Source: Candidatus Omnitrophota bacterium (GTDB lineage: Bacteria > Omnitrophota > Gorgyraeia > Zapsychrales > JBDRMG01). From it: 53,844 nt of DNA. The stretch spans positions 1 to 53,844 of the forward strand of contig JBDRMG010000010.1 of assembly GCA_043812495.1 (NCBI GenBank). The letters are read 5' to 3'. Positions 11,631 through 49,509 of this stretch are shown piece by piece. Each line of letters begins with the position of its first letter. The stretch's first letter is position 1. The translations under genes and the position numbers were made by a program. Under the pieces are notes generated by a model. That model saw only the letters and a list, made by a program, of their open reading frames with translations, made no database searches and was not told the origin of the DNA.

Positions 11631-11757
11631 GAAATATTATTATTGTATTTGTTTTATCCCCCACCACTTTTTATCAAAGTGGTGGGGGATTAATTCGGCC
11701 TCGCACTTATGTTCTCCGCCATAATTCGTGGCGGATCCATAAGTGCAGGCCTCATTA
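11631..11757 (+). repeat. Modular double-hairpin element, copy 1
   Basis: GAAATA-N9-TATTTG, hairpin CCCCCACCAC..GTGGTGGGGG, TTAATTCG, GCACTTATG..CATAAGTGC, CTCATTAA then AAGGAG RBS of the pilT-like gene. Confidence 0.9.
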
Positions 11758-11770
11758 AAAGGAGTGTCCG

Positions 11771-12847
11771 ATGAATATCAGTCGAATATTAAAATTAATG
11801 GTTGAGCAGGAATCCTCCGATCTTTTCTTGCGCGCCAACGCCGCGCCTCATGTACGGGTGCACGGAAAACTGCGCATTCTGGATGCCCAGGTTTTATCCA
11901 AGAATGATATGCTGACGATTACGGATTTTCTTCTGGCCAATGACAATCAACGGGAGATTTATGCCAAGGAGCTGGATATTGATTTTATCCATCAGGAGCC
12001 CGGGATCGGCCGATTCCGCGTCAATATTTTTACCCAACGAGGAAGCCCGTCTATTGTGGCCAGGTATGTCACGGATGCTGTTCATTCCTTCGAAGATTTG
12101 AATCTTCCCGTGGAGTTGTGTCGTCAATTCTGTGAAGAACCCCGGGGTCTTGTTCTTGTCTGCGGCCCGGCCGGAAGCGGTAAATCAACAACCATCGCCA
12201 GCATGGTCGAGTACGTGAACGCCACCATCGAAAAACATATTGTGACCATCGAGGACCCCATTGAATTTTTGTTCAGAGATAAGAAAAGCATTATTAATCA
12301 GCGGGAGCTGGGTATCGACGTTCCTTCTTATCCGGCGGCTCTGAAGCATGTGACCCAGCAGAGTCCCGATATTATTTTTATCGGGACCATTCGCGACGAG
12401 CCGACCATGAAAGCGGCCATTTCCGCGGCCGAGTTGGGGGTTCTAGTCATGTCCACGTTTCATACGATCAATGCGATTCAGACCATTGAACGGATCGTTA
12501 ATTTCTTTCCTCCGCACCTTCATAGCGAAGTCAGAATGCAGCTGTCGCTTTTGTTGAAAGGCGTTATTTCCTTAAGGTTAATTCCGCGCAAAGACGGCAA
12601 GGGCCGTATTCCCGCCTTTGAGACGATGGTCGTGACGCCCACCATCGCTCGCCTGATTCGAGAAGGCAGCATCACGCAGATCCAATCCTTTATTGACGAA
12701 GGACATCTGTTCGGCATGCAGTCGTTCAAGCAATCTTTGGTCAAGCTTGTCAAAGCCAACATGATCCATGAGGACGACGCGCGTTATTTAGCCGACAGCA
12801 GGGATGAATTTGATCTCGAATTAAGAGGTATTAAGAGCCGCCATTGA
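11771..12847 (+). CDS. PilT/PilU-family type IV pilus ATPase with degenerate Walker B and His box
   Basis: SSDLFL, RFRVN, GPAGSGKSTT, TIEDPIE, GMQSF; IGTIRD instead of GE(M/I)RD. Confidence 0.9.
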   Translation: MNISRILKLMVEQESSDLFLRANAAPHVRVHGKLRILDAQVLSKNDMLTITDFLLANDNQREIYAKELDIDFIHQEPGIGRFRVNIFTQRGSPSIVARYVTDAVHSFEDLNLPVELCRQFCEEPRGLVLVCGPAGSGKSTTIASMVEYVNATIEKHIVTIEDPIEFLFRDKKSIINQRELGIDVPSYPAALKHVTQQSPDIIFIGTIRDEPTMKAAISAAELGVLVMSTFHTINAIQTIERIVNFFPPHLHSEVRMQLSLLLKGVISLRLIPRKDGKGRIPAFETMVVTPTIARLIREGSITQIQSFIDEGHLFGMQSFKQSLVKLVKANMIHEDDARYLADSRDEFDLELRGIKSRH

Positions 12848-14862
12848 TGACCTTGTCGCTTTCCAAACCCTCCCGGCCCCTCATCGCTTTGTTTCTTCTG
12901 GGACTTTGTCTGACGCTCTATGCGGGAAGCATGAAGGCCGGATTTGTCATTGATGCCCATTATGCGGTTGAACGAAATCCTGTCATCAAGCAGCCAGCCC
13001 TTTATTATAAAATATTTACGGAAGATTTCTTTTCGGCTACCGATGATCCCTTTTTGCAGAAAATGTATTATTATCGTCCTGTCCCGCTTGTGACTTTGGC
13101 TATCGATTACCGATTATGGAAGCTGAAACCATTTGGTTATCATTTCAGCAATTGCCTGCTTCACGCCATTAATGCGTTTCTGATTTTTTGTTTGATCACG
13201 GCTCTTTTTAAAAATGATGCCTTGGCGTTCTTGACATCGGTGTTTTTCTGTATTTTGCCGACGCAGGAATGGGTGGTCAATTATATTCCGGGGCGGATGG
13301 ACTTAGTCCAGGCCCTCTTTATCTTGCTGTCGTCTTTAGCCCTTGTTCGCGCGCTTGAATCGCGCGCTAAGGGCTATTTCCTGCTCAGTATATTTTACTT
13401 TGTCATCGCCCTTTTAAGCCGGGAAGTAACCGTTATTTATCCCGCTCTGGCTTTTCTCATATGTTATTTTATTCAGAAAAATGGACGAAAATCATTGCTG
13501 GGCGCTTTGCCTTTTCTTGCGATAAGCTTACTCTATTTGAGTATTCGATTTCTCTTTTATCCCATTACTTCCTCAGAGGAAAGTTTAGGGGTTTTGAGAA
13601 CCTTTCTTTCCCTCGATGGCCTGGGGCATTGGATTTTTATTTTTGCGGCCTATATCAGCCGCTTTATTTTTCCGTGGTCTGTGCAATCCATCGTTTTCTC
13701 TGGTTTTCGATTCAGCCTGATCAAACTCCTTGTGTTTGGTTTTCTCATTACGGGCAGTCTCCTGGCCTCAATTGATATATTCCGCAAACATCAAAAAACA
13801 TTTTTTGTATTTGGATGGGCCTGGATTCTTATTTCCTTTCTACCGTTTTCTCTGATGGTGTCTCAATTTTTGCTTATCGGACCGGTTCTCTCTGAGCATT
13901 ATCTTTATTTAGCGTCCATAGGATTCTGTCTTCTTTTAAGCGGATTTATTCTTCAAGCACGTCCCAAAATACAGAGCGGGATCACGGCGTTGGTGATTAT
14001 TTATTTCTGTGGTCTTGTTGTTTATAACAATACGTACTGGAAAGACGAGAAGACATTATTGAACCGCGTCAAATATTTGGAAGGCGAAGATCAATACGTG
14101 TCTTCGAGCCAACTCTTGGTGTTGAATGAGGATCCGGCCGCGGTTCTTAATCGGCTGCAGGATGTCGAGGACCCCTTAAAAAAGAAAAGATGGATATTGA
14201 CCTTGGCGGACCATTACCTGAAACAAAAAGAATATTCCAAAGCCATTGAGTATTATGAACAATCTCTTAAGGGAAATCTTCAAAGCGCTAAAGTTTACAG
14301 AGGCCTGGGAGAAGCTTATGCCAAAACCAACCAAAGAGCATTGGCCATCGAAAGCTTAAAGAAATCTTTGAAGCTTAATCCGGCCGATGATTATACCAGC
14401 TATTATTTAGGATTTCTTTTTTACCAGCAGGATGACTTTCCGCAAGCGATTCGTTACTTGGAACAGTCGAGCTTCTATAATCCCGACAGCGCTGAGACCC
14501 TTTTTACCCTGGGTCTAGCGTATTTTTTTAACCAACAAAAAGAACTATCGGTACGGACGATGAAAAAAGTCGTTGATCTCGCCAACGACAAAGGGGCTGT
14601 CTATCAAGCGGTCGCGCAGGAAATGTATAAACGCGGGTATCAAAATGATGCGGCGTTCTTCCTTGAAAATGCCATGAAAATATTCCCTCAAGACCCCCGC
14701 ATCCTGTTTATGCTCGGCCAGATTTATTATGGGCTGGGTGAGAAAAATATGGCCTTGGCCGTGTGGCAAGAAGCTTTTAATATCGAGCCCAAAGATCAGA
14801 AAACAAAAGATTATATTTTGAAGATCAGAGACAGAATCAAGGCCGTCTCGGCTCAGCCCTAA
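12847..14862 (+). CDS. TMTC-like GT-C membrane glycosyltransferase with C-terminal TPR repeats
   Basis: FVID..NP, YYRP, GYH..N..LH..N, EHYLYL motifs; about 11 TM segments; TPR array. Confidence 0.8.
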   Translation: MTLSLSKPSRPLIALFLLGLCLTLYAGSMKAGFVIDAHYAVERNPVIKQPALYYKIFTEDFFSATDDPFLQKMYYYRPVPLVTLAIDYRLWKLKPFGYHFSNCLLHAINAFLIFCLITALFKNDALAFLTSVFFCILPTQEWVVNYIPGRMDLVQALFILLSSLALVRALESRAKGYFLLSIFYFVIALLSREVTVIYPALAFLICYFIQKNGRKSLLGALPFLAISLLYLSIRFLFYPITSSEESLGVLRTFLSLDGLGHWIFIFAAYISRFIFPWSVQSIVFSGFRFSLIKLLVFGFLITGSLLASIDIFRKHQKTFFVFGWAWILISFLPFSLMVSQFLLIGPVLSEHYLYLASIGFCLLLSGFILQARPKIQSGITALVIIYFCGLVVYNNTYWKDEKTLLNRVKYLEGEDQYVSSSQLLVLNEDPAAVLNRLQDVEDPLKKKRWILTLADHYLKQKEYSKAIEYYEQSLKGNLQSAKVYRGLGEAYAKTNQRALAIESLKKSLKLNPADDYTSYYLGFLFYQQDDFPQAIRYLEQSSFYNPDSAETLFTLGLAYFFNQQKELSVRTMKKVVDLANDKGAVYQAVAQEMYKRGYQNDAAFFLENAMKIFPQDPRILFMLGQIYYGLGEKNMALAVWQEAFNIEPKDQKTKDYILKIRDRIKAVSAQP

Positions 14863-14877
14863 TTGTTGTAATTCCTT

Positions 14878-14977
14878 TCAATGAGTCCGCCACTGGTTCA
14901 ATGGCGGACGAATTAACACCGCCCGCCAATGAATCAATGGCGGGCGGTGGATTAAGCAAATACAATTATAATATTTC
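14878..14977 (-). repeat. Modular double-hairpin element, copy 2
   Basis: + strand reads TCAATGAG-hairpin-CGAATTAAC-hairpin-CAAATA-N9-TATTTC. Confidence 0.85.
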
Positions 14978-15040
14978 AACATAGTTATGTTATAATACCT
15001 CCGTTTTTATTACGCAAACAGACGGACAGGACACCATCTC

Positions 15041-16133
15041 ATGTTTGATGTCATCATAAAGCAAATTCAGGTTTTGGAAGAGAAGCTCGCCCAACTCAGG
15101 GGGTTTCTTTGACCTTCCCAAGAAATGTGAAGAGATAGCCTCGATTCAAGAGCAGATGTCCCAGCCTACCTTCTGGAACGACGGTCAACAGGCCAATCAA
15201 CGGATGAGAGAATTAAAAATACTGAAATCCACGGTTGAACCATTTCAGGAAAGCGTCAGTAAATTAAGCGAGCTCAAAGAACTGGCTGAGATCTCGCAAG
15301 ACGACCCTTCACTTTTGGGGCAGATCAGCAAGAATCTAGAAATTGTATCACAGCAAATCAATGAAATTGAAATCAAAGCAATTCTCGGCGGTGAATTCGA
15401 CAAAAACAATGCCATTTTAAGCATTAATGCGGGTGCCGGCGGAACAGAATCCTGTGATTGGGCGAATATGCTTTTGAGGATGTATACGCGCTGGGCCGAA
15501 GACAAAGAATTTAAAGTCAAAATCCTTGATATTCTGCCCGGCGAAGAGGCGGGAGTCAAAAACGCGACCGTTAGCATTATCGGAGACATGGCTTACGGGC
15601 TTCTGAAATCAGAAAGAGGCGTTCACCGTTTGGTGCGGATTTCACCTTTTGATTCCAACAAACGCCGGCATACCTCGTTTGTTTCCGTCGATGTGATCCC
15701 CGAGATTGAAGATGATATTTCGATCGAAATTGATTCCGATGATCTCAGGATAGATATTTTCCGCTCCTCCGGTCCCGGCGGGCAAAGCGTCAATACCACC
15801 GATTCGGCGGTGCGCATGACTCATATTCCCACAGGGGTCGTCGTGCAATGCCAGAATGAACGCTCACAGCTTCAGAACAGACAAATGGCCATGCGTATTT
15901 TGCGCGCGAGACTTTATGAGAAGAAGCAAAAAGAAAAGGATGAAAAGATGGCCGCCGAGTATGGTCAAAAACAGAAAATTGAATGGGGCAGTCAAATCCG
16001 CTCGTATGTTTTACAGCCCTACAGCCTCGTCAAAGACCACCGCACGGATACAGAAACCGGAAATGTTCAAAGAGTTTTGGAGGGAGATATCAATCTTTTC
16101 ATTGAGGCTTTCTTAAGGACAAGGAAAAAGTAA
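15041..16133 (+). CDS. prfB: Peptide chain release factor 2 (programmed +1 frameshift at 15107-15113)
   Basis: ORF0 MFDVIIKQ...RGFL* with AGGGGG-TTT-CTT-TGA-C; +1 frame continues DLPKK... into SPF and GGQ motifs. Confidence 0.97.
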
Positions 16134-16224
16134 AATTATAGTTTGCTGTACTCCGAGTCCGCCACAAGCATTGGCGGACTCGGGGTCAATTCGCCCGCCA
16201 CTGAATCAATGGCGGGCTCATTGA
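16134..16224 (+). repeat. Modular double-hairpin element, copy 3
   Basis: CCGAGTCCGCC..GGCGGACTCGG-GGTCAATTCG-CCCGCC..GGCGGG-CTCATTGA upstream of secA. Confidence 0.85.
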
Positions 16225-16239
16225 GAAGAAATAATTATT

Positions 16240-19202
<2,963 letters not shown>

Positions 19203-19218
<16 letters not shown>

Positions 19219-20732
19219 AAAAGATAAGCAAATTCAAGCGCTTCAAAACATTCTGGCTTTCTGTCGCCAGCGCGCTTTTATTGAATTTCTCTTTTCCCAA
19301 AATACATTTTGCCTTTCTGGCATTTGTGGCCCTGGTTCCGTTCTTTCTGGCTTTGGATGGCAAGAAGCCGAAGAGGTGTTTTTGGATCGGATATTTTACC
19401 GGCATTTTGTTTTTTGTCATGACGCTGTACTGGTTTATCCATGTGACCGCCGCCGGCGCGTGCGCCTTGATTCTCTATCTATCGCTTTATTTCGGCCTTT
19501 TTGCCGTCGGATATTGTGCGTTTTCAAAAAAATCATTTCTGACTAGGCTCATTTTGCTACCTTGCCTGTGGGTGGGGCTTGAATTTTTACGCGCGCATCT
19601 TCTCACCGGATTCGGATGGGTCAGCCTAGGTCAATCGCAGTATACAAATCTCAATCTTATTCAGTTTGCAGATATCACCGGGATGCTCGGCGTTTCTTTT
19701 TATATCGTCATGGTTAATGTTCTGGTCAAAGAATTTGTTGCTTTCCGATTACATAATAATTTTAAGGCCCATCGGCATGAAATTTTTGCGCCGTGCTTTC
19801 TCGTTGTGATTCTGACAACCGTGATCTTCACCTATGGTTTGGTCCGCATGGACCAAGACATCGACGGACCCGCGGCTAAAATTGCCGTTGTTCAAGCGAA
19901 TATAGCCCAAGACCTCAAGTGGAGTCCACCAGCCTGGCCGGTGATTCTGGAAAAATACCTTGTTCTGACGCGGGAAGCCGCCCAGGAGAATCCGCAACTG
20001 ATTATTTGGCCGGAATCTTCTTTTCCGGGTTATGTCTGGGAGATGCCGGAGGTTTTTGAAGAATTAAAAGATTTTGTACACGAAATGCGTATCCCTTTGT
20101 TAATCGGCTTGGTGACGCGCGTCAATGATCGGTATTACAATTCTGCGGTCCTTATCAGCGAGGACGGAGAGGTGATTCGTCAATACGATAAGCTTCATTT
20201 AGTGATGTTCGGAGAGTATATTCCGCTAAGAAAAATGCTTCCTTTCTTGTCTACGATTGTGCCGATCGATGATTTTACGGCCGGACGAAATTTCACACTT
20301 TTTCCTATTCCGGGACTTAAGGGAAATAATAAGAAATTATCGGTTCTGATCTGTTTTGAAGATACGGTTCCCGAGCTTTCGGCCAACTTTGTGGGCCGAG
20401 GAGCGAATCTTCTTGTCAACATTACCAATGATGCCTGGTTTAAAGACACAAAAGCCCCTTACCTGCATTTGGCCGCGAGCGTCTTTCGTGCTATTGAGAA
20501 TCGACGTGGATTGATTCGCGCGGCCAATACGGGCGTGAGTTGTTTTATTGATGCAAAAGGAGAAATCATTCGCGAGGTCCAAGATTCTACAGGCAAAGCA
20601 ACATACGTCACGGGAGTCCCCATGGAGAATATAGAGCTGAGCCAACGAAAGACTTTCTATACAAAGTATCAAGACCTCTTTGTCTATTTCTGTTTTGGCT
20701 CTATACTATGGGGGATTCTGATAAAGAAATAA
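19203..20732 (+). CDS. lnt: Apolipoprotein N-acyltransferase
   Basis: TM N-terminus plus nitrilase triad [33 protein letters not shown]. Confidence 0.96.
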
Positions 20733-20744
20733 ACACGTTAGAAG

Positions 20745-20890
20745 GAAATTTTGTAATTGAATTTGTTTTACCCCCGCACCAATTATTTCATAATTGGTGC
20801 GGGGGTCAGTTCGGCCTCGCACTTATGTTCCCCCGCTTCTTGCCCCGCAAAATACGGGGCAGCGGGGTCCATAAGTGCGGGCCTCATTGA
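20745..20890 (+). repeat. Modular double-hairpin element, copy 4
   Basis: CCCCCGCACCAATTATTTCATAATTGGTGCGGGGG-TCAGTTCG..GCACTTATG..CATAAGTGC..CTCATTGA then AAGGAG. Confidence 0.9.
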
Positions 20891-20903
20891 AAGGAGTGAC
20901 GCC

Positions 20904-21701
20904 ATGTCAAAAAGATCTGTCGGAATTACCGCGATCGGTTATGGATTATCCTTGGTATACGGAATCGGATTGGCTATTTATTTAGGCGCTTTCATCGTGT
21001 CTTTTGTCGACCAAGGAGCTGTTTTGCAGTCGGCCTTATTCACGAATGAATTCAATAGTCTTGAGGAATTTCAGCGATATGCTGTTATTATCTGGGTTTT
21101 ATGCCTTCCTCAGCTCATCGGTCTTTTGGGAGTTCTCAATTTAAAAGAATGGGGCCGAAAACTGGTGGTATTTATGAATATTGTCAGCTGCGTTTATGTG
21201 ATCTACCGCATGGGTTTTGTCGTGAAAGGCGTGGATCCCTTATCTATTGCCCTCATCTTGATTTATATCGGGATCATCGCATTCTTAAGCTGGTCCAAGA
21301 TCAAAGATCAGTTTATCAGCGACGTGAAGACCTTTCAGAAAAGAATTCTGATTGTGGACGATGACCGCGGTCTTTTGAAATTGGTCAAATCGGTGTTAAC
21401 CAGGAAGGGGTTTCATGTGTATGCGGTCAATACAGGCGAAAAAGGTTTACGCCTGACCAAGAAGGTCAAGCCGGACCTTGTTATTCTTGATGTGATCTTG
21501 CCCGGAATTAAAGGGCGGGATGTCTGCGCTCTTTTGAAGCAAGATGAACGAACAAAGAATATTCCGATTATCTTTCTGACCTCAAAGCAATCGGATGATG
21601 ACATCAAGGCCGAGCTCGAAGCGGGCGCCGTCGCGCATTTGACCAAACCCTTGGATTTACCGACTTTGATTATGGATGTGAGGAAAATTTTAGGTGTTTA
21701 A
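20904..21701 (+). CDS. Membrane protein with C-terminal response-regulator receiver domain
   Basis: Four TM segments followed by RILIVDDD, PDLVILDVILP, IIFLT, LTKP. Confidence 0.88.
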   Translation: MSKRSVGITAIGYGLSLVYGIGLAIYLGAFIVSFVDQGAVLQSALFTNEFNSLEEFQRYAVIIWVLCLPQLIGLLGVLNLKEWGRKLVVFMNIVSCVYVIYRMGFVVKGVDPLSIALILIYIGIIAFLSWSKIKDQFISDVKTFQKRILIVDDDRGLLKLVKSVLTRKGFHVYAVNTGEKGLRLTKKVKPDLVILDVILPGIKGRDVCALLKQDERTKNIPIIFLTSKQSDDDIKAELEAGAVAHLTKPLDLPTLIMDVRKILGV

Positions 21702-21785
21702 GAATACTTCTAAGAAATTGGCTGTTGCTTGGATTATCCTTTGTTGATAACTAATTTGATTATTGGGGAAACAGAGAAAACATTG

Positions 21786-22406
21786 ATGAATAAACAAGAG
21801 GAACTAAATATAACTAGTAAATTTTTGATTCATAAATATAGTCATTGTAAAGAATGGGAAATTATGAATAAGAATGAAGTAAAAAAAGTATTTCCCAGCT
21901 ATAATGGCGAGAATCCAGATTGCGTGATATCCGATGGCAGACAGCATGTCGGAGTTGAATGTTTCAAATTATGTCTAACCGTATCACCACAGCTTGAAAG
22001 TAAACGCGACGAGGATGGCCATAAGATTATAAATTTGCTACATAGGCAAAGCAAATTTCCAAAAAAAATAAATATGTTACAGGTGGATACGGAAAAGCAT
22101 ATTAAAGCTCTAAAAAGATATGGCCTCGCCCTTCAAGATAAAATCGATGACATTTTAAAGCAAGAATTGCCCGATAAGTTTGCAAAAAGTGATGGGTATG
22201 TTACACCAGGTGTATGGCTTTTAGGATACGCTAATGAATTTCCTTCACAGATGAATCTGATACATAATGTTATTGAAGATAATGCGGTAGATGCCTTACG
22301 GCAAATGATTGCAGGAATGAATGTGCCGCTGAGAATAAAAAAAATATTTTTGTTCGAAGTGGATATTAACCAGGTAAATCATTTATTAGAGATATTCACG
22401 CGGTAG
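21786..22406 (+). CDS. Hypothetical low-GC protein, possible PD-(D/E)xK-like nuclease
   Basis: AT-rich ORF; ENPDCVI...GVECFK resembles the PD...E-x-K restriction-fold core. Confidence 0.5.
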   Translation: MNKQEELNITSKFLIHKYSHCKEWEIMNKNEVKKVFPSYNGENPDCVISDGRQHVGVECFKLCLTVSPQLESKRDEDGHKIINLLHRQSKFPKKINMLQVDTEKHIKALKRYGLALQDKIDDILKQELPDKFAKSDGYVTPGVWLLGYANEFPSQMNLIHNVIEDNAVDALRQMIAGMNVPLRIKKIFLFEVDINQVNHLLEIFTR

Positions 22407-22443
22407 AAAAATGTTTTTGGAAAAAACATAATTAGGGCGCTAA

Positions 22444-23175
22444 ATGTCGGTGATCGTATATCTTGATGAAAGCGGTGATCACTCATTAGAACTTGTCGAC
22501 AAGGATTTCCCATTTTTTGCTCTCGCGATGTTTATCTGCGAGGAAGCGATATATAATCAGAAAATTTCACCAGCCATCAATCAATTCAAAATGAATTTTT
22601 TCGGCCACGAGGCAGTTATTATTCATTCGCGGGATATACGCAAGGCCCAACGCGATTTCGGCATTCTTACGAATCCTGTAAAGCGGGCGGAGTTTTATAG
22701 GAAATTGAATCAAATAATGTCGGATTCGGATTATCAGTTGATAGTTTCCATCATAAAAAAGCAAGATCATAAAGAAAAATATGGTATATATGCAGCTAAT
22801 CCTTATGATTTAGGAATGACGTTTTGCATGGAAAGACTCTTGCCTTTGCTTGAAGAAAAGAAACAAGACAAGGTGCAACTCATCGCAGAGAGTCGCGGCA
22901 AGAAGGAAGATGATGACCTGATGCTAAGTTTTCTGAGGATTGCTAACCAGGGCACGAACTACATTCCCGCAGATCGATTCAAAAAGATAAGTTTTAAGTT
23001 GAAATTCGTACCCAAGATAATGAATGTCGTAGGTACGCAGTTGGCGGATTTGGCGGCTTATCCCGTAGCCAGACATATCCATAATCCCAGTAAGCCGAAT
23101 CCTGCCTATAATATTGTCAAAACTAAATTTTATAAGGGTAAAGGATGGGTTCAGGGATTGAAAATATTCCCATAA
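22444..23175 (+). CDS. DUF3800 domain protein
   Basis: N-terminal VYLDESG and C-terminal QLADLAAY motifs typical of DUF3800. Confidence 0.9.
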   Translation: MSVIVYLDESGDHSLELVDKDFPFFALAMFICEEAIYNQKISPAINQFKMNFFGHEAVIIHSRDIRKAQRDFGILTNPVKRAEFYRKLNQIMSDSDYQLIVSIIKKQDHKEKYGIYAANPYDLGMTFCMERLLPLLEEKKQDKVQLIAESRGKKEDDDLMLSFLRIANQGTNYIPADRFKKISFKLKFVPKIMNVVGTQLADLAAYPVARHIHNPSKPNPAYNIVKTKFYKGKGWVQGLKIFP

Positions 23176-23246
23176 AAGCAAAAAGCTCCGATTTTCACCA
23201 GAGCTTTTTGTCGACCGGGAATCCCCAGTCCCTTGAATCAAATTCT
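23176..23246 (-). ncRNA. Putative DUF3800-associated small RNA, convergent to the gene
   Basis: Minus-strand promoter upstream; hairpin GACUGGG-GAUU-CCCGGUC then terminator CAAAAAGCUC..GAGCUUUUUG-CUUUU. Confidence 0.65.
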
Positions 23247-23252
23247 ATATAA

Positions 23253-23281
23253 ACTATACAAGAGAAAACATGGTTTGTCAA
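23253..23281 (-). promoter_or_regulatory. Near-consensus sigma70 promoter pointing back at the DUF3800 gene
   Basis: Reverse complement reads TTGACA-N17-TATAGT. Confidence 0.8.
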
Positions 23282-23330
23282 GATTTTTGAAGGTAGAAAT
23301 ACGAACTATGAACCTAGTCAAGTCTTTATG

Positions 23331-23394
23331 AATAACGACACCCAAAACCATGACCAGACACCAATGATACCTATACCGATAACGAAAACGAATA
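23331..23394. repeat. Hexamer-periodic repeat arm (lone right arm of the element at 26251-26396)
   Basis: AATAACGACACCCAAAACCATGACCAGACACCAA..CCTATACCGA nearly identical to 26334-26396. Confidence 0.8.
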
Positions 23395-23437
23395 TATTGA
23401 TTTTTCCAAGAACGCATAGGATACAGGGAGCTCAAAC

Positions 23438-23920
23438 ATGGACATAAGAAATGTAAAAATCGAGAAACCCGACGATGTGAACGTGATTATCGGTCAATCC
23501 CATTTTATCAAAACCGTGGAAGACCTTTATGAAGCCATTATTTCGTCTGCTCCCCAGATGCTTTTTGGTATTGCTTTTTGCGAGGCTTCGGGGGCGTGCA
23601 AGATTCGCCTGGAGGGCAATGACGAGAATCTTAAAAAACTGGCCGCCAAGAACGCGCAAGCCATTGGGGCCGGGCACAGTTTTGTCATTATGCTTCAAAA
23701 AGGTTTCCCGATCAATATTTTAAACCAGATCAAGAATACTTGCGAAGTCTGCACGATTTTCGCGGCTACGGCCAATCCCTTAGAGGTTATCATCGCCGAA
23801 AGCGAAACAGGACGAGGGATTTTGGGTGTCATCGACGGCCAAAAACCCAAAGGCATAGAGGATCAAAACGATATCGCCTGGCGTAAGGATCTCTTGCGTA
23901 GATTCGGATACAAACGTTAA
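23438..23920 (+). CDS. Adenosine-specific kinase family (DUF355) protein
   Basis: NVIIGQSHFIKTVEDLYE, FCEASG, ATANP, GRGILGVIDG. Confidence 0.9.
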   Translation: MDIRNVKIEKPDDVNVIIGQSHFIKTVEDLYEAIISSAPQMLFGIAFCEASGACKIRLEGNDENLKKLAAKNAQAIGAGHSFVIMLQKGFPINILNQIKNTCEVCTIFAATANPLEVIIAESETGRGILGVIDGQKPKGIEDQNDIAWRKDLLRRFGYKR

Positions 23921-23922
23921 TC

Positions 23923-24852
23923 ATGCTTTTTCGCGACCGAATAAAAATCTTTAAAAGAGCCATGGCCCGCCACGGCCTGTTGGGTTCGACCTGGATTTTG
24001 ACAAGGTTGCCTTACGGCCTCGTCAAGATTATTGCGCGTGGCATGATGGCCATCGGTTTTCGTTTGACCGTCAAGCAAAGGCGTATTGCCATGGAGAGTT
24101 TGCATATCGCCTTAGGTGCGGAAAAGTCCGAGAAGGAGCTCAAGAAAATATACCGCGATTGCTTTGAGAACGTCGGCCGCAGCATGATCGAAATGATTTA
24201 TTTTATGGCGCATCCGGACATGATCAAAGAACGGGTGACTTTTGAAGGTAAAAACCACTTGGACGAAGCGCTCGCCCAAGGTAAGGGCGTGGTCGCGATC
24301 AGTGCTCATTTCGGTAACTTTCCTCTTATGCTTTTGCGTTTGGTGCAAGAAGGATACAAAACTAACGCGATTATGCGCGCCACACGCGACGAGAAAATCG
24401 AAGAATATTTTCAGAATCTGCGCACGCGTATGGGGCTTCATACGATTTACAGCCTGCCGCGCAAAGCCTGCGTGGACGAATCATTGAAAGTTTTGCGAAA
24501 CAATGAATTTTTATTTATCCCCCTCGATCAGAACTTTGGTTCCGGCGGCGGTGTTTTTGTGGATTTCTTCGGCCAGCAGGCCGCAACCGCCACAGGACCT
24601 GTAGTTTTTTCCATGCGCACGGGCGCGCCGCTTTTGCCTGTTTTTATGGTCCGCCAAAAGGATGATACGCATAAGATTCTCATCGAGCCGCCGCTTAATC
24701 TGATAGAGAATCAAGATGATAAGGAAACCATTTACGTCAATACGGCGCGCATCACATCCATCATCGAACAATATATCCGCCGGTATCCCGAAGAATGGGG
24801 CTGGATGCATCGGCGTTGGAAGAGCAAGCCTCCAGGTCAACCGGCATCGTGA
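23923..24852 (+). CDS. Lipid A lauroyl/myristoyl acyltransferase family (LpxL-like)
   Basis: HFGNF, DQ, FVDFFG, P.EW.WMHRRWK motifs. Confidence 0.9.
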   Translation: MLFRDRIKIFKRAMARHGLLGSTWILTRLPYGLVKIIARGMMAIGFRLTVKQRRIAMESLHIALGAEKSEKELKKIYRDCFENVGRSMIEMIYFMAHPDMIKERVTFEGKNHLDEALAQGKGVVAISAHFGNFPLMLLRLVQEGYKTNAIMRATRDEKIEEYFQNLRTRMGLHTIYSLPRKACVDESLKVLRNNEFLFIPLDQNFGSGGGVFVDFFGQQAATATGPVVFSMRTGAPLLPVFMVRQKDDTHKILIEPPLNLIENQDDKETIYVNTARITSIIEQYIRRYPEEWGWMHRRWKSKPPGQPAS

Positions 24853-24867
24853 AACACAGGAGGAACT

Positions 24868-25041
24868 ATGGCAAAGTTACCCAAGAAAATCATATATTTT
24901 TTTAGCGGTTTTGTTTTTTTGATTTGCGGAATAGCGTTTATTTTGGGGTATTGGCCTTATGTGGTTGTTTTATTCAAAGGAGTGATCGGCATTTGTCTGG
25001 CCTTTTTGGGTCTGGTCGTGCTTTTTTTCATCAAGGAATAA
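24868..25041 (+). CDS. 57-aa two-TM small membrane protein (not in ORF track)
   Basis: AGGAGG RBS; MAKLPKKIIYFFSGFVFLICGIAFILGYWPYVVVLFKGVIGICLAFLGLVVLFFIKE. Confidence 0.7.
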   Translation: MAKLPKKIIYFFSGFVFLICGIAFILGYWPYVVVLFKGVIGICLAFLGLVVLFFIKE

Positions 25042-25099
25042 TATTGCCATTTGGTAAGGTCATAAGAAAATATTAATCGTGTTCCGAAAATTTATATTC

Positions 25100-25213
25100 T
25101 AAACGCAGATTTACGCAAATCAAACGCAGATGGTCGCAGATATTTTATCCAGTATACTATTAAAGAAATCAATCTGCGTTAATCTGCGTGAAATCTGCGT
25201 TAATCCGCGTTTA
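25100..25213. repeat. Inverted arrays of 10-11-mer AAACGCAGAT / ATCTGCGTT
   Basis: Four units on each arm around an AT-rich core of about 30 nt. Confidence 0.85.
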
Positions 25214-25247
25214 AGTTCTTTAAAAAAATTAATATTTTAGGAAAACT

Positions 25248-26246
25248 ATGGTTTGGTTACAATTTTTGACAAGCGCCCTGTTGATTGTTATTGCGGGCGT
25301 CAAATTAGTCAAATACACGGACATTTTAAGCGACAAGTTGTCCTTGAGCAAAGCTTGGCTTGGAGTAATTCTCTTAGGCCTGGTGACATCCCTGCCGGAG
25401 GCCATTACAAGTATTACGGCGCTCATTTCTTTTCAGGCGACGGATTTGGCTGTCGGTAATATGCTTGGCAGCAACCTGTTTAATTTGATGATTATTGTTC
25501 TTTTGGATGCCATGTACCGCAAAGGGTCTGTTACCGACGCTATCGAACCCAATGCCGCCAATATTTTACCGGCCGTTTTTGCGATTCTTCTTTCCATGAT
25601 TGTGGGTACGGAGATTTTTATCGGCTCAAAAATGACTTTACCAAGAATCGGATTTATGAGTTATGGTTTGCTTGCGGTCGCCGTCATTTATCTTGTTGGG
25701 ATACGGATTTTGGGAAAGATAGGTGCCATCGGCTCTCTGAGCGGACCGGTCTCATCGGCAGGCAAGAACAGCCCGATCTTGTCAAAAGTTATTCTGGTCT
25801 TATCCCTGAATGCCGTTTTGGTCATCGTGGCTTCAATCGGGTTGACGGATTCTTGCGAAACAATTGCCCATTTGACGAACCTTGGCCGAACGTTTATCGG
25901 CAGTACGCTTCTGGCATGGTCGACGAGCCTGCCGGAAATTGTTGTGTCTGTTTCGGCTTTTCGCATCGGCTCCTTTGATATGGCCTTCGGGAATATTTTC
26001 GGAAGCAATATGGTCAACATGTTCATTGTGTTTATTTGTAGCTTTTTTTATCGCAAGGGACCGATTCTTGCGGCTGTTTCGCAAACTCATGTGTTCTCGG
26101 CCATGGCTGTGATTATGATCAGTTGTCTGGCGCTCGCCGGGATTTTCTCCAAGAATAAAAAGAAATACGCGCACATGGGTATTGATTCCATTACCATGAG
26201 TATTTTTTTTGTTGTCATTATTGCCGTGCTTTATCGGCTGAAATAA
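25248..26246 (+). CDS. Sodium:calcium (CaCA) antiporter family protein
   Basis: Two alpha repeats TSLPE...GNxxGSN. Confidence 0.92.
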   Translation: MVWLQFLTSALLIVIAGVKLVKYTDILSDKLSLSKAWLGVILLGLVTSLPEAITSITALISFQATDLAVGNMLGSNLFNLMIIVLLDAMYRKGSVTDAIEPNAANILPAVFAILLSMIVGTEIFIGSKMTLPRIGFMSYGLLAVAVIYLVGIRILGKIGAIGSLSGPVSSAGKNSPILSKVILVLSLNAVLVIVASIGLTDSCETIAHLTNLGRTFIGSTLLAWSTSLPEIVVSVSAFRIGSFDMAFGNIFGSNMVNMFIVFICSFFYRKGPILAAVSQTHVFSAMAVIMISCLALAGIFSKNKKKYAHMGIDSITMSIFFVVIIAVLYRLK

Positions 26247-26250
26247 AAAC

Positions 26251-26396
26251 TGTTTTTGTTGGAGGTATGGGCATGGTTAGAGTCTTGTTGTCGTTTTCGT
26301 TGTGGTTATGGTCGGCAAAAAGTCTTGTTCACAAATAACGACACCCAAAACCATAACCAGACACCAACGATGCCTATACCGAGAACAAGAACAAAT
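26251..26396. repeat. Long imperfect hairpin with hexamer-periodic arms
   Basis: G/T-rich left arm is near-complementary to A/C-rich right arm with regularly spaced mismatches. Confidence 0.8.
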
Positions 26397-33651: not shown

Positions 33652-34929
33652 ATGAAGAGACTCAAGGAAAGCTTTAAAAACAGAAACTTCTTTTGCCTCT
33701 GGCTGGCGCAGATCATCAGTCAGTTCGGCGACCGCATCAATCAAATGGCATTGATTGGGCTGGTGGCTGAGCGCGGCTTGAATTCCACCTTTGATCTGGC
33801 CAAACTTCTGTCCTTCAGCATCATTCCCGTCTTTATCGTCGGGCCCATCGCGGGGGTTTACGTCGACCGTTGGGACCGGCGCGTAACGCTTTTTGTCTGC
33901 GATTTCCTGCGCGGCTTTCTGGTCTTATCGATCCCCTTCTTGTTTATTTACCGCGAATCCATGATTCCCATTTACGTGATTGTTTTTTTGGTGTTTTCCT
34001 TAAGCCGTTTCTATGTACCGGCCAAGATGTCGATTATTCCGGAATTGGTCCCACAAACGGATCTCTTGATGGCCAATTCGCTTGTCAGCACAACCGGTAT
34101 GATCGCCTTTGTGCTGGGATGTTTATTCGGAGGGTTGATTGTCGAAAATTTAGGTTCGGCCGGCGGGTTTTTCTGGGATGCCGTGACCTTCTTTGCCTCA
34201 GGAGTCCTGGTTTTATCCATCAGCTTGGAAATTAAAAAGAGTTTTAAAACACGAGAGCTCATCCGAGCCGGTTTAAAGACATCTAAAGAAATGATCGATG
34301 TTATTCATAAATCCGTGATGAGCGAAATCAAAGAAGGCGTCAGCTACTTAGTGAACCACAAGGATATCCGATTTATCATCAGTATATTGTTTATCCTTTT
34401 TTCGGCAGCCGGCGCGGTGTATGTGGTCATCATCGTCTTCATTCAAAAGGCTTTTAGCACGATCACGCGGGATTTGGGATTTCTCGCGGTCTTTTTGGGC
34501 CTGGGGCTTTTTGCGGGCGCGATTCTCTACGGCCGTTTCGGAAGGAAATTCTCGCGCATTAAAACCATGTTTTTCTGCCTTATCTTAGGGGGTCTCATTC
34601 TGATGACCTTTGCCTCGTTTGTTGAATATGTCCATAATTTTGCTTTGGCCGCGCTGTTGGCCTCAATTCTCGGATTTGTCGTCGGGCCCATCATGATCGC
34701 CACCAACACCGTTGTGCATGAAGTAGCCGATGAAAGAATGCTCGGCAAGGTCTTCAGTTCCCTTGAAATCGTGATTCACTTTGCGTTTCTTGTCAGCATG
34801 CTCTTAAGTTCCTTCTTGGCCGAACGCATAGGACATTTTGTGATTTTGATGTCTGTTGGTGTAATATTTGCATTTGTGGGTCTGGGCGGACTTTTGACTT
34901 ACAAAAAACAGATTGTCTTTAAAATTTGA
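33652..34929 (+). CDS. MFS transporter
   Basis: About 12 TM segments; LWLAQIISQFGD and GVYVDRWDRR (motif A). Confidence 0.93.
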   Translation: MKRLKESFKNRNFFCLWLAQIISQFGDRINQMALIGLVAERGLNSTFDLAKLLSFSIIPVFIVGPIAGVYVDRWDRRVTLFVCDFLRGFLVLSIPFLFIYRESMIPIYVIVFLVFSLSRFYVPAKMSIIPELVPQTDLLMANSLVSTTGMIAFVLGCLFGGLIVENLGSAGGFFWDAVTFFASGVLVLSISLEIKKSFKTRELIRAGLKTSKEMIDVIHKSVMSEIKEGVSYLVNHKDIRFIISILFILFSAAGAVYVVIIVFIQKAFSTITRDLGFLAVFLGLGLFAGAILYGRFGRKFSRIKTMFFCLILGGLILMTFASFVEYVHNFALAALLASILGFVVGPIMIATNTVVHEVADERMLGKVFSSLEIVIHFAFLVSMLLSSFLAERIGHFVILMSVGVIFAFVGLGGLLTYKKQIVFKI

Positions 34930-35050
34930 AATAGTATTTTTGTATTTGCTTAATCCCCGCCTACCATTGAATCAATGGCGGGGTTAATTCGGCTAACAAC
35001 TTATGTCGTCCCGCCTTTGGCGGGACATCCATAAGTTGGAGCCTCATTAA
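34928..35050 (+). repeat. Modular double-hairpin element, copy 8
   Basis: GAAATA-N9-TATTTG overlapping the MFS stop; GGTTAATTCG..CAACTTATG..CATAAGTTG..CTCATTAA then AAGGA. Confidence 0.9.
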
Positions 35051-35063
35051 AAGGAAAAACTCT

Positions 35064-35669
35064 ATGATGACCTTTGCCTGTTTGGTTTCTGGCCGCGGCA
35101 CAAACCTGCAAACCATCCTGAACGTCATCAAAAAAGGAAAACTAAAAACCCGTTGCGCTGTTGTCTTAAGCGACAATGAAAAGGCCTTGGCCTTGAAACG
35201 CGCCGTCAAAGCCGGCGTCAAGGCCGTGTACATCAACCCAAAAGATTTCCGCACGCGCGCGCTTTTTGATCGCGCGATTTTAGATTACCTGAAAGCCGAA
35301 AGGGTCGATTTTGTCGTCCTGGCCGGATTCATGCGCGTTTTAAGCCCCGCTTTTGTGCGGGCCTATCGGAATAAAATCCTCAATATTCATCCTGCGCTTT
35401 TACCCAATTTCCGCGGAGCCCACGCCATTCGGGATGCCTTTAAAAGTGGCGTCGATACAACCGGCGTCACGGTTCATTTTGTGGATGAAAAAGTGGATCA
35501 CGGCCCAATCATTCTGCAAGAAAAAGTCAAAATCAGCCCAAAAGACACCCTCGCCTCGCTCGAAGCAAAGATTCACAAAGTTGAGCACAAGCTCTATCCT
35601 AAGGCCATTGATCTTTTTGTTAAGAAAAAGCTGAAGATTGCCGGCCGCAAAGTCAGAATTAAAAAATAA
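35064..35669 (+). CDS. purN: Phosphoribosylglycinamide formyltransferase
   Basis: SGRGTNL, LAGFMR, NIHPALLP, GVTVHFVD..VDHGPII. Confidence 0.97.
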   Translation: MMTFACLVSGRGTNLQTILNVIKKGKLKTRCAVVLSDNEKALALKRAVKAGVKAVYINPKDFRTRALFDRAILDYLKAERVDFVVLAGFMRVLSPAFVRAYRNKILNIHPALLPNFRGAHAIRDAFKSGVDTTGVTVHFVDEKVDHGPIILQEKVKISPKDTLASLEAKIHKVEHKLYPKAIDLFVKKKLKIAGRKVRIKK

Positions 35670-39460: not shown

Positions 39461-39580
39461 TCGATGAGGTCCGCACTTATGCGACTTTAAAGGAGCATAA
39501 GCGCGAGACCGAATTGACCCCCGCACCAATTATGAAATAATTGGTGCGGGGGTACTAAACAAATACAGTAAAGAATTTTC
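39461..39580 (-). repeat. Modular double-hairpin element, copy 9 (in the eno leader)
   Basis: GATGAG..GCACTTATGC..GCATAAGCGC..CGAATTGA; hairpin A identical to copies 4 and 6; CAAATA-N9-ATTTTC. Confidence 0.9.
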
Positions 39581-41778: not shown

Positions 41779-41830
41779 GGGCCGCCCGCCAATGATTCAT
41801 TGGCGGGCGGCCCGCTTTCTTCTTTTTTCT
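41779..41830 (+). terminator. CCGCCA(A/T)TGAWTCA(A/T)TGGCGG REP hairpin followed by a T-rich tract
   Basis: GGGCCGCCCGCCAATGATTCATTGGCGGGCGGCCC then GCTTTCTTCTTTTTT. Confidence 0.65.
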
Positions 41831-41864: not shown

Positions 41865-42035
41865 TCAATGAGGCCGCAACTTACGGAAATCCAACTAAAG
41901 GCGTGATGACGTAAGTTGCTGGCCGAATTGACCCCGCACCTTTTTCTCATTCAAATATCTTAAGATGGTTCGGCTTTAAAACGTTTGAATAAATAAAAGG
42001 TGCGGGGAAGCAAAAAAACACAAATATAATATTTC
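41865..42035 (-). repeat. Modular double-hairpin element, copy 10
   Basis: TCAATGAG-GCCGCAACTTACG..CGTAAGTTGCTGGC-CGAATTGA-CCCCGCACC..GGTGCGGGG..TATTTC; directly before the ATG at 42040. Confidence 0.88.
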
Positions 42036-44969: not shown

Positions 44970-45098
44970 TTCTCCTTCGCTAAAGTTCGACTTCGCTCTT
45001 CGAGCTTCGTCGAAATCTCGCCGAAGCATGAAATGCGAAGACGGACTACGGAGAATCCTTCGAAGTCCGCCAACGAAACAATGGCGGACGAAGAAGGA
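44970..45098. repeat. Nested CTTCGCTAAAG/CTACG palindrome cluster
   Basis: TTCTCCTTCGCTAAAG[insert]CTACGGAGAA followed by TCCTTC..GTCCGCC..GGCGGAC..GAAGGA hairpin. Confidence 0.65.
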
Positions 45099-47386: not shown

Positions 47387-47503
47387 CGCAGCCAATCACA
47401 AGGCCCCCGCCCGCCATTGAATCAATGGCGGGCGGGGGCCTTTCTTGTGAATAGGTTGCGCTTCTTTGCCTTCCACATTCAGAAAAGGCAAAGGAGTGAA
47501 ACC
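47387..47503 (+). terminator. Composite REP hairpin terminator after the RRM gene
   Basis: AGGCCCCCGCCCGCCATTGAATCAATGGCGGGCGGGGGCCTTTC; right half repeated at 41613-41697. Confidence 0.7.
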
Positions 47504-47881: not shown

Positions 47882-48152
47882 GAAATAGCATCATTGTATT
47901 TGTTTCATCCCTGTCCTTTTGCCTTCGGCAAAAGGACAGGGATAATTCGGTCATGCACTTATGTTTCCGCCGAAATCTTTGATTTCGGCCCGCTTCGCCA
48001 AAGCTCAGCGAGGCGAGCGAGGTCTCACCAGATCGCCTTACGGCAACCTGGCGGACTTTCGCTTCCTGTCTGCCGACAGGCAGGCGCTAAACGATGTTTC
48101 AGTTGCACAACGATGTTTCAGTTGCACAATCCATAAGTGCAGACCTCATTAA
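47882..48152 (+). repeat. Modular double-hairpin element, copy 11 (hairpin B expanded by nested palindromes)
   Basis: GAAATA-N9-TATTTG, CCCTGTCC..GGACAGGG, ATAATTCG, GCACTTATG[about 170 nt]CATAAGTGC, CTCATTAA then AAGGAGG. Confidence 0.9.
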
Positions 48153-48164: not shown

Positions 48165-48221
48165 ATGAGCAAAGGAAGAGATAAACCAAAGAAAGAGAAG
48201 AAGAAACAAAAAAAACGATAA
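48165..48221 (+). CDS. 18-aa lysine-rich micropeptide MSKGRDKPKKEKKKQKKR
   Basis: AAGGAGG RBS at good spacing; followed by strong hairpin 48231-48267. Confidence 0.5.
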   Translation: MSKGRDKPKKEKKKQKKR

Positions 48222-48286
48222 CAATAAACAGGGGGCACGGACCTCCTCGAAGGAGGTCCGTGCCCCCAAAAGCAGATCCGACTTTT

Positions 48287-49303
48287 ATGAAATCATTTCT
48301 TAAAAAAACTTTCCTTTTATTTTGCATTATTCTTTTTTTGAGCGTTACGGGTTTTTTGATTCTTTGCTATTCTTCCCGGACATTAGAAGGCCTTATCACC
48401 TTCGGCGGTAACCGTTTTCAGAAAGAAATCACAATCCGCAAATTCACCATCACAAAACAAACTTACGATTTCCCTAAAAAGTTAACTTTTCAGAATGTGT
48501 CCTTATTATTCGACAGGGAGCAAGAGGCCTATTCGCTTGATTTCAAGACGATCGAATTATCCGGACTTTTTGGGCTTATCTTTAAGAACCATCCTGTCGC
48601 TCTTCAAGCCGAAGGTGGTCTTTTCGAAACTTCGGCATTTTGCCTAGAAGGTTTGGAGGTGAATCTGAAGACCACAGACACAAAAGTCTGGAAAGGGCCG
48701 GTTCTTATCAAAAAAGCGAAGGCGAGCGGATTTGAGGCGACAAATATCAGCGGGAATGCCGAAGTTCAATCCCAAAAAGCCGTTGTTTCGGACATCAAGG
48801 GAAGTTCCTATCGAGGGAAAGTCACCGGAAGGCTGACCGTTCATTTTGCGCCGGATGTCCGTTACGAGGCGGATATCGCCTTTCAAGATTTAGACACTCA
48901 TGAGATGGAAAGTATCAACCCCTCTTTGTTTTCGCAGGTGCGCGGGCAAATCTACGGGACGATTCTTATCCGGGGTCCGGCCGGCGGCCTTGAAACGATT
49001 CAGATGAACATGCAATTAGGAGAGGGGGCTGAGCTTCTGGCCGGCGTTCTTCAGCCTTTGCTGAAGCATATTCCTAAAAGCACCCAGCGAAAAGAGATTC
49101 AGGCCGCTATTAAAGAAGGCCGGATGATTGGAATCAATGATGCCGCATTGACTCTCGGCAACAGTGATGATAAAACTGTCTCTACGGAAATTCTACTCAA
49201 AAGCAAGGCCCTGAACATCGATGTGGACGTTAAAATAGATGTTAACATAGAAGGGGGTCTGCAAAATCTTTTGAAAACTGTTCTTCAATTTTACCATCCA
49301 TGA
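48287..49303 (+). CDS. AsmA-like / YdbH-like membrane-anchored protein
   Basis: N-terminal TM, beta-rich body (YRGKVTG.L); upstream of ynbE/ydbL-like genes. Confidence 0.7.
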   Translation: MKSFLKKTFLLFCIILFLSVTGFLILCYSSRTLEGLITFGGNRFQKEITIRKFTITKQTYDFPKKLTFQNVSLLFDREQEAYSLDFKTIELSGLFGLIFKNHPVALQAEGGLFETSAFCLEGLEVNLKTTDTKVWKGPVLIKKAKASGFEATNISGNAEVQSQKAVVSDIKGSSYRGKVTGRLTVHFAPDVRYEADIAFQDLDTHEMESINPSLFSQVRGQIYGTILIRGPAGGLETIQMNMQLGEGAELLAGVLQPLLKHIPKSTQRKEIQAAIKEGRMIGINDAALTLGNSDDKTVSTEILLKSKALNIDVDVKIDVNIEGGLQNLLKTVLQFYHP

Positions 49304-49509
49304 GGCCATGATGTGCAACTGAAATATCGTGTGCAACTGAAATATCGTTTATGCCTGCCTGCCGTCAGGCAGGGAGTCCGCCGGATTAAAGTGCAAACGA
49401 TGTTTCAGTTGCACAGCCAATGATGTGAGGTGGACGACATAAGTCATTCGGCCGAATTGACCTCGCTTGCCTTAGTTTTTGCTTTGGACAAGCTGAGGCA
49501 AACGAGGGG
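49298..49509 (-). repeat. Modular double-hairpin element, copy 12
   Basis: ATGAGGCC..GGCCGAATTGA-CCTCG..CGAGG; its ATGAG supplies the stop codon of 48287-49303; shares 19-mers with copy 11. Confidence 0.8.

Follow-up and report, generated by a model that had tools for sequence, protein, structure and literature searches.

The DNA analysed here, a 53,844-nt stretch (the window) that forms contig C10 of G000, the studied genome bin of a Candidatus Omnitrophota bacterium (1.94 Mb, 66 contigs), contains 13 genuine copies of a small, recently multiplied, hairpin-forming DNA element inserted between genes. The element is probably a mosaic of nested palindromic DNA repeats, neither one RNA nor one protein site, that derives from a GIY-YIG nuclease cassette and has spread selfishly within this lineage. 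Its hairpin A, in full form, carries the gene of a tiny GIY-YIG nuclease, and we therefore view the element as a selfish repeat and not as a shared regulatory switch. Omnitrophota are uncultured bacteria with small genomes and almost unannotated intergenic DNA. In the present case a single repeat family accounts for much of the DNA between genes; predictions of promoters, leaders, terminators and small RNAs in this genome would be dominated by selfish hairpins.

Read in the sense of the element, a unit comprises a 21-nt AT-rich box, 5 to 7 nt (cTTAAT), hairpin A (CCCC...GGGG), the junction TYAATTCG, hairpin B (25 to 197 nt in the window) and the closing junction CTCATTRA; its usual 3′ neighbor is AAGGAG, followed by a start codon. 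The box has the consensus GAAATATTATAATTGTATTTG, often with TT just ahead of it, and units are mosaics of 60 to 270 nt with nested hairpins. All 13 copies reported in an initial annotation of this DNA are present at the window positions it gave, and the exchange of modules that it described, counting copies from 0, is borne out: hairpin A is identical in the copies at 20745, 30182 and 39461 and near-identical in those at 16134 and 33531, hairpin B is common to 11631 and 27730, and an ATTGAWTCAAT hairpin of the repetitive extragenic palindrome (REP) type serves as A at 14878 and 34928 and as B at 16134. An automatic parse delimited the parts of 11 of the 13 copies; copy 8 and the box of copy 9 were placed separately. 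The copies, numbered from 1, and the free-standing hairpins of the window are as follows.

1–54, plus strand: copy 1, a B module truncated where the contig begins (ATTCG, hairpin, TTCATTGA), then GGAGG and ATG.
11631–11758, plus strand: copy 2; box 11631–11651; hairpin A within 11652–11689, arms CCCCCACCACTTTTT; TTAATTCG 11690–11697; B 11697–11751; CTCATTAA 11751–11758; downstream AAGGAG and the ATG (11771) of a PilT-like ATPase gene; upstream a retained native promoter-like box, TGTACGATAAT.
14878–14977, minus strand: copy 3, antisense between a TPR gene and prfB; box 14957–14977, a perfect 21-mer; REP-type A; TTAATTCG 14909–14916; REP-type B of 25 nt; CTCATTGA 14878–14885.
16124–16224, plus strand: copy 4, occupying the prfB–secA gap; degenerate box overlapping the prfB stop codon; A beginning CCGAGTCCGCCAC; TCAATTCG 16186–16193; B a REP of 25 nt; CTCATTGA 16217–16224; secA ATG at 16240.
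20745–20890, plus strand: copy 5; box; A beginning CCCCCGCACCAATTATT; TCAGTTCG; 71-nt B with a nested hairpin; CTCATTGA; then AAGGAG and the ATG of a response-regulator gene.
27730–27869, plus strand: copy 6; degenerate box; A beginning CCCAGCACTAATTTT; TTAATTCA; 55-nt B; TTCATTAA; then a Shine-Dalgarno (SD) motif, a conserved 27-codon open reading frame (ORF) and an H+-pyrophosphatase gene.
30182–30310, minus strand: copy 7, antisense between the H+-pyrophosphatase and SNF-symporter genes; box 30290–30310; A of the same sequence as in copies 5 and 10; 52-nt B.
33531–33650, plus strand: copy 8; variant box GAAATAGTAAAATTTTAATTTG; A beginning CCCCGAGTCCGCCAC; TCAATTCG 33593–33600; 44-nt B; CTCATTGA 33643–33650; the ATG of an MFS transporter gene almost immediately 3′.
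34928–35050, plus strand: copy 9, occupying the MFS–purN gap, with the MFS stop codon TGA inside TTGAAATA; box 34928–34948; REP-type A; TTAATTCG 34984–34991; 53-nt B; CTCATTAA 35043–35050.
39461–39580, minus strand: copy 10, in the divergent gap between the genes for an FtsH-like protease and enolase, oriented toward the former; degenerate box; 43-nt B.
41865–42035, minus strand: copy 11; box 42015–42035; long-loop A with arms beginning CCCCGCACCTTTT; TCAATTCG 41924–41931; 53-nt B; CTCATTGA 41865–41872.
47882–48152, plus strand: copy 12; box; A; ATAATTCG; 197-nt B that holds additional nested hairpins as well as a 19-nt tandem repeat; CTCATTAA; then AAGGAGG and ATG (48166).
49298–49509, minus strand: copy 13, inverted on the other side of the copy-12 gene; no box; long B with the 19-nt repeat; degenerate 3′ arm.
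47408–47436, no strand assigned: free-standing REP-type hairpin CCCGCCAYTGAWTCAATGGCGGG, a hairpin found also in the place of A, in that of B, or nested at the B tip.
41783–41811, 45064–45092, 50261–50289, 51958–51986 and 53814–53842: other free-standing REP-type hairpins.

The window copies are insertions, because six of the six window sites examined are unoccupied in the sister genus. Sites were compared by conserved gene order with G001, the single genome of the same family, which represents that genus, and with other families of the order. The prfB–secA spacer is 106 nt long here, where G001 has 3 nt, G002 has 5 nt and G010 has about 15 nt (in G018 the spacer is unrelated, and the G006 contig ends there). 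The MFS–purN gap that holds copy 9 is empty in all four syntenic genomes (G001, G002, G006 and G010); G018 is non-syntenic at this place, yet has a B-like module before purN. The ogt–pilT site is empty in three of three genomes (G001, G002 and G006), each with a TGnTAnAAT-type promoter, and a similar box persists upstream of copy 2 in the window. The sites of copies 6, 7 and 10 are likewise empty in G001. A regular-expression scan of 23 orthologous loci returned no box and only three weak motif pairs.

A genome-wide census by pattern and folding scans, with the reversed genome as control, shows that the element is dispersed; together with the empty sites, it supports the initial proposal of a DNA-level, insertional element. 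Requiring T[CT]AATTCG, a hairpin folding from end to end and CTCATT[AG]A, with at most one mismatch per junction, the scan found 103 B modules in the genome and one in the control, picking up nine of the 13 window copies; its folding filter replaced a strict ungapped stem filter that had dropped copies with the conserved 5′ bulge (58, then 85 candidates, 16 in the control). The 21-mer box, with up to four mismatches, occurs 90 times against none in the control; 73 of these boxes have a 5′ junction within 140 nt downstream, and most of the other 17 still precede a hairpin A. Merging the two sets yields 145 composite loci, one per 13.4 kb, so that the earlier projection of hundreds per genome was too high; the window, at one copy per 4 kb, is enriched roughly threefold. 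The short motifs, each taken by itself, are weak and not significant: the dyad pattern gave 22 matches with at most two mismatches versus 10.1 expected, a number reached by one of 100 shuffles, and the 9-mer junction gave 41 versus 36.4 expected. An Rfam scan of the whole window returned three tRNAs only, with no family matching the element, and a permissive scan of 33480–35100 gave a best E value of 0.18, far under the gathering threshold. Copy 2 had no match in plasmid and phage collections. Three groundwater DNA runs, compared with 11200–31199, yielded only low-depth pieces of 200 to 300 nt and conserved genes of other organisms, with no contig bridging or skipping an element.

Pairing within the B module is conserved through co-variation, for which the initial annotation had looked to the stems. 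Across 118 distinct modules, position 2 of the outer helix TYAAT/ATTRA reads CG in 57, TA in 52, AT in 4, TG in 4 and TT in 1; the next two positions are mismatches, on the sense strand T/C in 115 and C/T in all 118, which on the opposite strand form a tandem G.A, so that the asymmetric mismatch noted earlier at the base of B is real and nearly invariant. In the first B stem, position 9 is GC in 58 and CG in 49 modules and position 10 shows four pair types. A common plan recurs in B: a base of 4 to 5 bp, a 5′-arm bulge of 1 to 2 nt, a stem that ends in CTTAYG/CRTAAG, and nested apical hairpins. Both strands of three copies fold as DNA equally well, and far above shuffles (z from -3.6 to -14). 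On the sense strand, Watson-Crick-only folds contain 27 A.C and 8 G.T single mismatches, and the stem base 18 G.T and 10 A.C; wobble pairs thus show no preference for the mRNA-sense strand. Because both strands fold alike and wobble pairs favor neither, the data point to stem pairing being maintained at the DNA rather than the RNA level. Families of hairpin A and classes of hairpin B combine freely, the CACCAATT type of A, for example, occurring with five B classes. Only one convincing unit is devoid of A (minus strand of contig C16, near 21587 of the reverse-complemented contig), its box running directly into TTAATTCG; the genome scan found no units devoid of B.

The origin of hairpin A is shown by a locus elsewhere in the genome. 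Among 16 matches to the GIY-YIG domain, one of them UvrC, is an 84-codon gene (G000:C5:24312–24563) that lies between the A-hairpin arms CCCCCACACCAATTATT and AATAATTGGTGTGGGGG, in the order inverted B, arm, GIY-YIG gene, arm, B, SD motif, ATG. Its 84-residue, single-domain product matches PF01541 over positions 2–74 of 78 (E = 9.8e-17) and NCBIfam models only partially and below threshold; the nearest solved sequences in the PDB are the UPF0213 proteins 1zg2 (E = 1.4e-8) and 1ywl. A search of 168 genomes of the order supplied 30 homologue loci for examination, four of which have the full cassette layout, each with a different, unrelated downstream gene: those of G000, G129, G104 and G001, the last a pseudogene with stop codons. 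At the other loci some genes have A-type arms without B, and many lie inside tRNA genes. The cassette arms match hairpins of the window, those of G129 resembling copy 2, of G104 copy 6, of G000 and G001 copies 5, 7 and 10, and of G023 copy 11; because of these matches, the window A hairpins are, judged by sequence, gene-less arm pairs of the GIY-YIG cassette family. About 12 further small GIY-YIG genes of this genome are associated with hairpins of other types (contigs C50, C29, C18, C36, C51, C66, C17, C8, C4 and C62; L001–L012), and several of them lie inside or beside tRNA genes and duplicate the 5′ part of the tRNA.

The core of the element is far more widespread than the box. Searched as GGGTYAATTCG, 20 to 60 nt and CTCATTRA, the core turned up in 20 of the 41 relatives and, in a phylum-wide sample of 401 genomes, in 77; no control gave a match. 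The highest copy number, 53, is that of this genome, and G128 comes next with 27. Twenty copies from five other genomes consist of hairpins A and B without a box; a ribosome-binding site and ATG come next in only some of them. The box, in contrast, was found 77 times here with at most three mismatches, 13 of its copies being identical 21-mers; none of 40 relatives, G001 among them, rises above the control level of 0 to 1. Because the core is phylum-wide while the box is confined to this genome among the 41 searched, an old, widespread A+B core gained the box in this lineage and then burst. Dated by its absence from the sister genus, the burst offers a setting in which to study how a repeat spreads and is co-opted for gene expression. 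A GIY-YIG homologue is found in 17 of the 20 core-positive and 12 of the 21 core-negative relatives, an association that is weak because these are related and incomplete genomes; the physical nesting of the gene within the hairpin is the stronger argument.

The initial annotation did not recognize the element as a described one; a relative exists, however, since hairpin A is an arm pair of a GIY-YIG cassette with an Ssn-like layout. Of the systems described so far, the closest is that of the Ssn nucleases with their SRM/NTS repeats, REP/BIME elements with RAYT transposases and IS200/IS605 elements being other close kinds. As described by Chenal et al. (2025; PMC11893778), the Ssn family comprises single-domain GIY-YIG enzymes that cut single-stranded DNA beside NTS/SRM hairpins, and their genes are flanked by their own repeats in a repeat-gene-repeat layout that the authors liken to an insertion sequence. 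The two systems share a nuclease of under 100 residues consisting of the GIY-YIG domain only (84 residues here, about 90 to 100 in Ssn), a gene bracketed by hairpin-forming repeats of which further copies lie scattered between genes (tens to hundreds for Ssn; 103 B modules and 90 boxes here), and a repeat orientation set by non-palindromic flanks. They differ in that the gene here lies inside hairpin A with a second type of hairpin module, B, outside it, that the repeats here are nested mosaics of 60 to 270 nt whereas Ssn units measure 20 to 50 nt, that the sequence here is unlike NTS, and that an AT-rich box peculiar to this lineage and a neighboring ribosome-binding site are attached. A term search of 12 of the 14 supplementary files of PMC11893778 found neither Omnitrophota nor Patescibacteria. 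Among the best 15 of 464 matches to literature on GIY-YIG proteins with palindromic repeats, none described this element, and among the matches listed for Omnitrophota and GIY-YIG the passage concerned gene transfer, not repeats. The repeat-nuclease-repeat layout is thus already described; what is new relative to the Ssn and REP kinds is the nesting of the gene in hairpin A, the B modules and the lineage-specific box. The locus offers a natural pairing of a tiny GIY-YIG nuclease, of a class just proposed as site-specific cutters of single-stranded DNA, with defined hairpin substrates.

With insertion, the link to the cassette, co-variation of the stems and a burst in this lineage shown by the data above, the probable history runs as follows. 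The core, hairpin A plus a B module, belongs to an Omnitrophota-wide family whose complete form has a gene for a single-domain GIY-YIG protein of about 84 residues in the loop of hairpin A and inverted B modules on both sides; the window copies are remnants without this gene. In the derivative of this lineage, the 21-nt, TATAAT-containing AT-rich box stands in place of the left B module, and the copies, about 90 to 145, lie at gene boundaries, often filling the space from a stop codon to the next ribosome-binding site. By analogy with Ssn enzymes, which act on single-stranded DNA hairpins, the nuclease could make the cuts that spread the repeats or its own gene, and the conserved junctions could be preferred landing points or short homologies for hairpin exchange. 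Surviving copies would be those that did not break expression; the box may act as a promoter, and the element stops short of the ribosome-binding site.

Several observations weigh against this selfish-cassette history. The sense bias of 52:22 and the fixed distance of 8 to 20 nt to a start codon (47 of 103 modules), described below, could reflect a selected function and not mere tolerance. A target-site duplication around hairpin A is not established, the flanks sharing five of five letters in only two of 75 cases, and the genome contains only one intact cassette of this type. The abundant box-bearing form has no left arm, which leaves recognition of two ends unexplained. GIY-YIG homologues also occur in the 12 core-negative genomes mentioned above, and three of the 20 core-positive genomes have none at E ≤ 1e-8. 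The role of the nuclease as mover of the repeats is inferred only; a Y1 enzyme could be the mover instead, because the genome encodes Y1 domains (eight matches to PF01797, the IS200-like Y1 family, seven of them over the cut-off) and because an IS200-like element (contig C64) and an ORF-less form of it (C18) sit exactly between TCAA and TTCG of the 5′ junction.

Copies at gene boundaries invite the question of what they do to expression. By crude ORF-based gene calls, the 103 B modules lie in co-directional gaps (52 sense and 22 antisense), divergent gaps (10), convergent gaps (8), called ORFs (8) and at contig edges (3). The initial annotation had stressed that both orientations occur, which holds insofar as antisense copies exist; orientation is nevertheless non-random, with the sense majority in co-directional gaps. 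The start codon of an ORF of at least 50 codons follows within 60 nt in 64 of 103 cases, at 8 to 20 nt in 47, and an SD-like motif follows CTCATTRA in 51. The genes downstream are unrelated (a PilT-like ATPase, SecA, a response regulator, the H+-pyrophosphatase, an MFS transporter, PurN and an FtsH-like protease). The box consensus contains TATAAT at positions 8–13, and the AT-rich box may act as a promoter on this resemblance. It has no conserved -35 element at 17 nt; the alternative arrangement, TTGAAA, 17 nt and cTTAAT, has no A at position 2 of the -10 element. A promoter scanner picked out no more than some of the copies, and promoter-like sites showed no enrichment (41 versus 33.8 expected).

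A tentative extension, which we regard as rather unlikely, is that the unit is a self-contained landing pad and expression adaptor: a mobile repeat with a promoter-like box that ends at a ribosome-binding site and whose two junctions (after TTAAT and at TCAA|TTCG) act as reusable docking points for no fewer than three kinds of single-strand hairpin mobile DNA (GIY-YIG cassettes, REP-type hairpins and IS200-like elements). With its own promoter-like box and its end at a ribosome-binding site, such a unit could split operon junctions without silencing the downstream gene. The adaptor would be a natural modular system that rewires transcription across a streamlined genome, and would account for the fixed junctions around interchangeable hairpins. 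Correia elements of Neisseria (CREE/NEMIS) are small, co-transcribed inverted-repeat insertions near gene starts, where they can supply promoter-like sequence. The present element, in contrast, has no TA duplication and no Correia terminal repeats, and its promoter activity is putative. "Mobile promoters" (PMC3575422) are a further kind for comparison.

Among explanations that would replace the selfish-cassette history, the one that survives best, unlikely as we judge it, is a REP/BIME-type origin, in which the mover would be a Y1 (HUH) transposase of the RAYT or IS200/IS605 kind, an enzyme that cuts hairpins in single-stranded DNA and inserts 3′ of a short target such as TYAA(T), with GIY-YIG genes as separate parasites homing into hairpin loops. 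REP, BIME and REPIN elements with RAYT transposases (PMC3116915; PMC3733652) resemble the present repeats as short GC-rich intergenic palindromes that combine into mosaics, are thought to act as single-stranded hairpins, and far outnumber the enzyme gene as non-autonomous copies. Here, A and B both lie directly 3′ of TYAAT, the orientation bias fits a single-strand mechanism, and the Y1 matches include three paralogues of 325 to 331 residues. The IS200-like element and its ORF-less form between TCAA and TTCG show no duplication; because they are inserted there, the junctions are real insertion points for hairpin-ended mobile DNA. The likeness to IS200/IS605 "peel and paste" elements extends to their hairpin ends, to a bias for one strand and to integration 3′ of a short target that is not duplicated, and one IS200-like element uses a junction of these repeats as its target; there may also be a resemblance to the end motifs of IS608. 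The A and B hairpin halves, however, are arms of one palindrome, not distinct left and right ends. Further, none of the seven Y1 loci is flanked on each side, to a distance of 350 nt, by REP, junction or box motifs, so that no flanked Y1 or RAYT gene of the kind envisaged in the initial annotation was found, and the gene associated with the repeats is that of a GIY-YIG nuclease. Y1 domains do not track the core pattern (15 of 20 core-positive versus 15 of 21 core-negative relatives), and G006 has 13 copies of the element and three GIY-YIG matches and no Y1 match. The hairpin feet, TYAAT-TC-G...C-TC-ATTRA and CCCC...GGGG, contain no GTAG/CGTC-type tag as defined in PMC3733652.

These Y1-related loci have features of their own. 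The Y1 transposase frame of the IS200-like element (G000:C64:1–700; L097) holds one TAG, and the derivative (G000:C18:18960–19270; L098), about 130 nt long and ORF-less, has the same ends; both insertions lie within box-A-B units. The three paralogues (C2:46102–47079, C45:203–1198 and C4:1223–2215) consist of an N-terminal Y1 domain and an uncharacterised C-terminal two-thirds, and G001 and G009 contain frames of similar length.

Less probable still is an RNA-level leader shared by a regulon, with the promoter, 5′-stabilizing stem-loop A, stem B and ribosome-binding site selected for mRNA stability, processing or translation. The cassette and the empty sites tell against a propagated promoter or leader. 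The sense orientation of 52 of the 74 copies in co-directional gaps, the start-codon and SD-like spacing (47 and 51 of 103), the TATAAT of the box and the co-varying stems would all fit a leader. A regulon, however, is hard to reconcile with the absence of the element from six of six window sites in the sister genus, among them operon junctions of 3 to 17 nt, with the unrelated housekeeping genes downstream, or with 22 antisense copies and eight in convergent gaps; the hairpin content is interchangeable, and pilT retains its native promoter upstream. At the level of structure, the mismatch counts reveal no sense-strand wobble excess (A.C 27 versus G.T 8; at the stem base G.T 18 versus A.C 10), the invariant mismatch is pyrimidine-pyrimidine on the sense strand, and no Rfam family matches. 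Integron-like attC sites or another tyrosine-recombinase substrate, suggested by imperfect hairpins with conserved unpaired bases on one strand, are very improbable, since, by layout only and with no integrase search made, copies stand singly at unrelated core-gene boundaries and not in a cassette array, and most have two or more different hairpins and an AT-rich box.

The remaining observations concern the window itself. The inverted long-B copies 12 and 13 enclose the gene at about 48166–49303, which has no Pfam family and 347 residues when read from the later GTG at 48260. A 19-nt tandem repeat (AAACGATGTTTCAGTTGCAC-like) is present in both copies, as is a CTGCC...GGCAGG hairpin, and the repeat-gene-repeat layout is of the kind discussed for NTS in Neisseria. 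The contig starts inside a B module (1–54) and ends inside a REP-type hairpin (53814–53844); these repeats probably break the assembly. A degenerate tRNA-Phe copy (32677–32749; 73 nt, 85% identical), called a tRNA by neither ARAGORN nor Rfam, lies 100 nt upstream of the intact gene (32777–32850). The 672-residue TPR gene (12844–14862), which separates pilT from prfB, is absent from G001, whose corresponding gap measures about 195 nt, and, judged from gap size, is present in G002 and G006. Finally, the 27-codon ORF just 5′ of the H+-pyrophosphatase gene (27880–27963) encodes a very basic peptide, MGKRQRRGKL.WRSK.A.H.K.P.KGH, which is conserved in three genomes of two families (the window; L083 of G001; L084 of G002).

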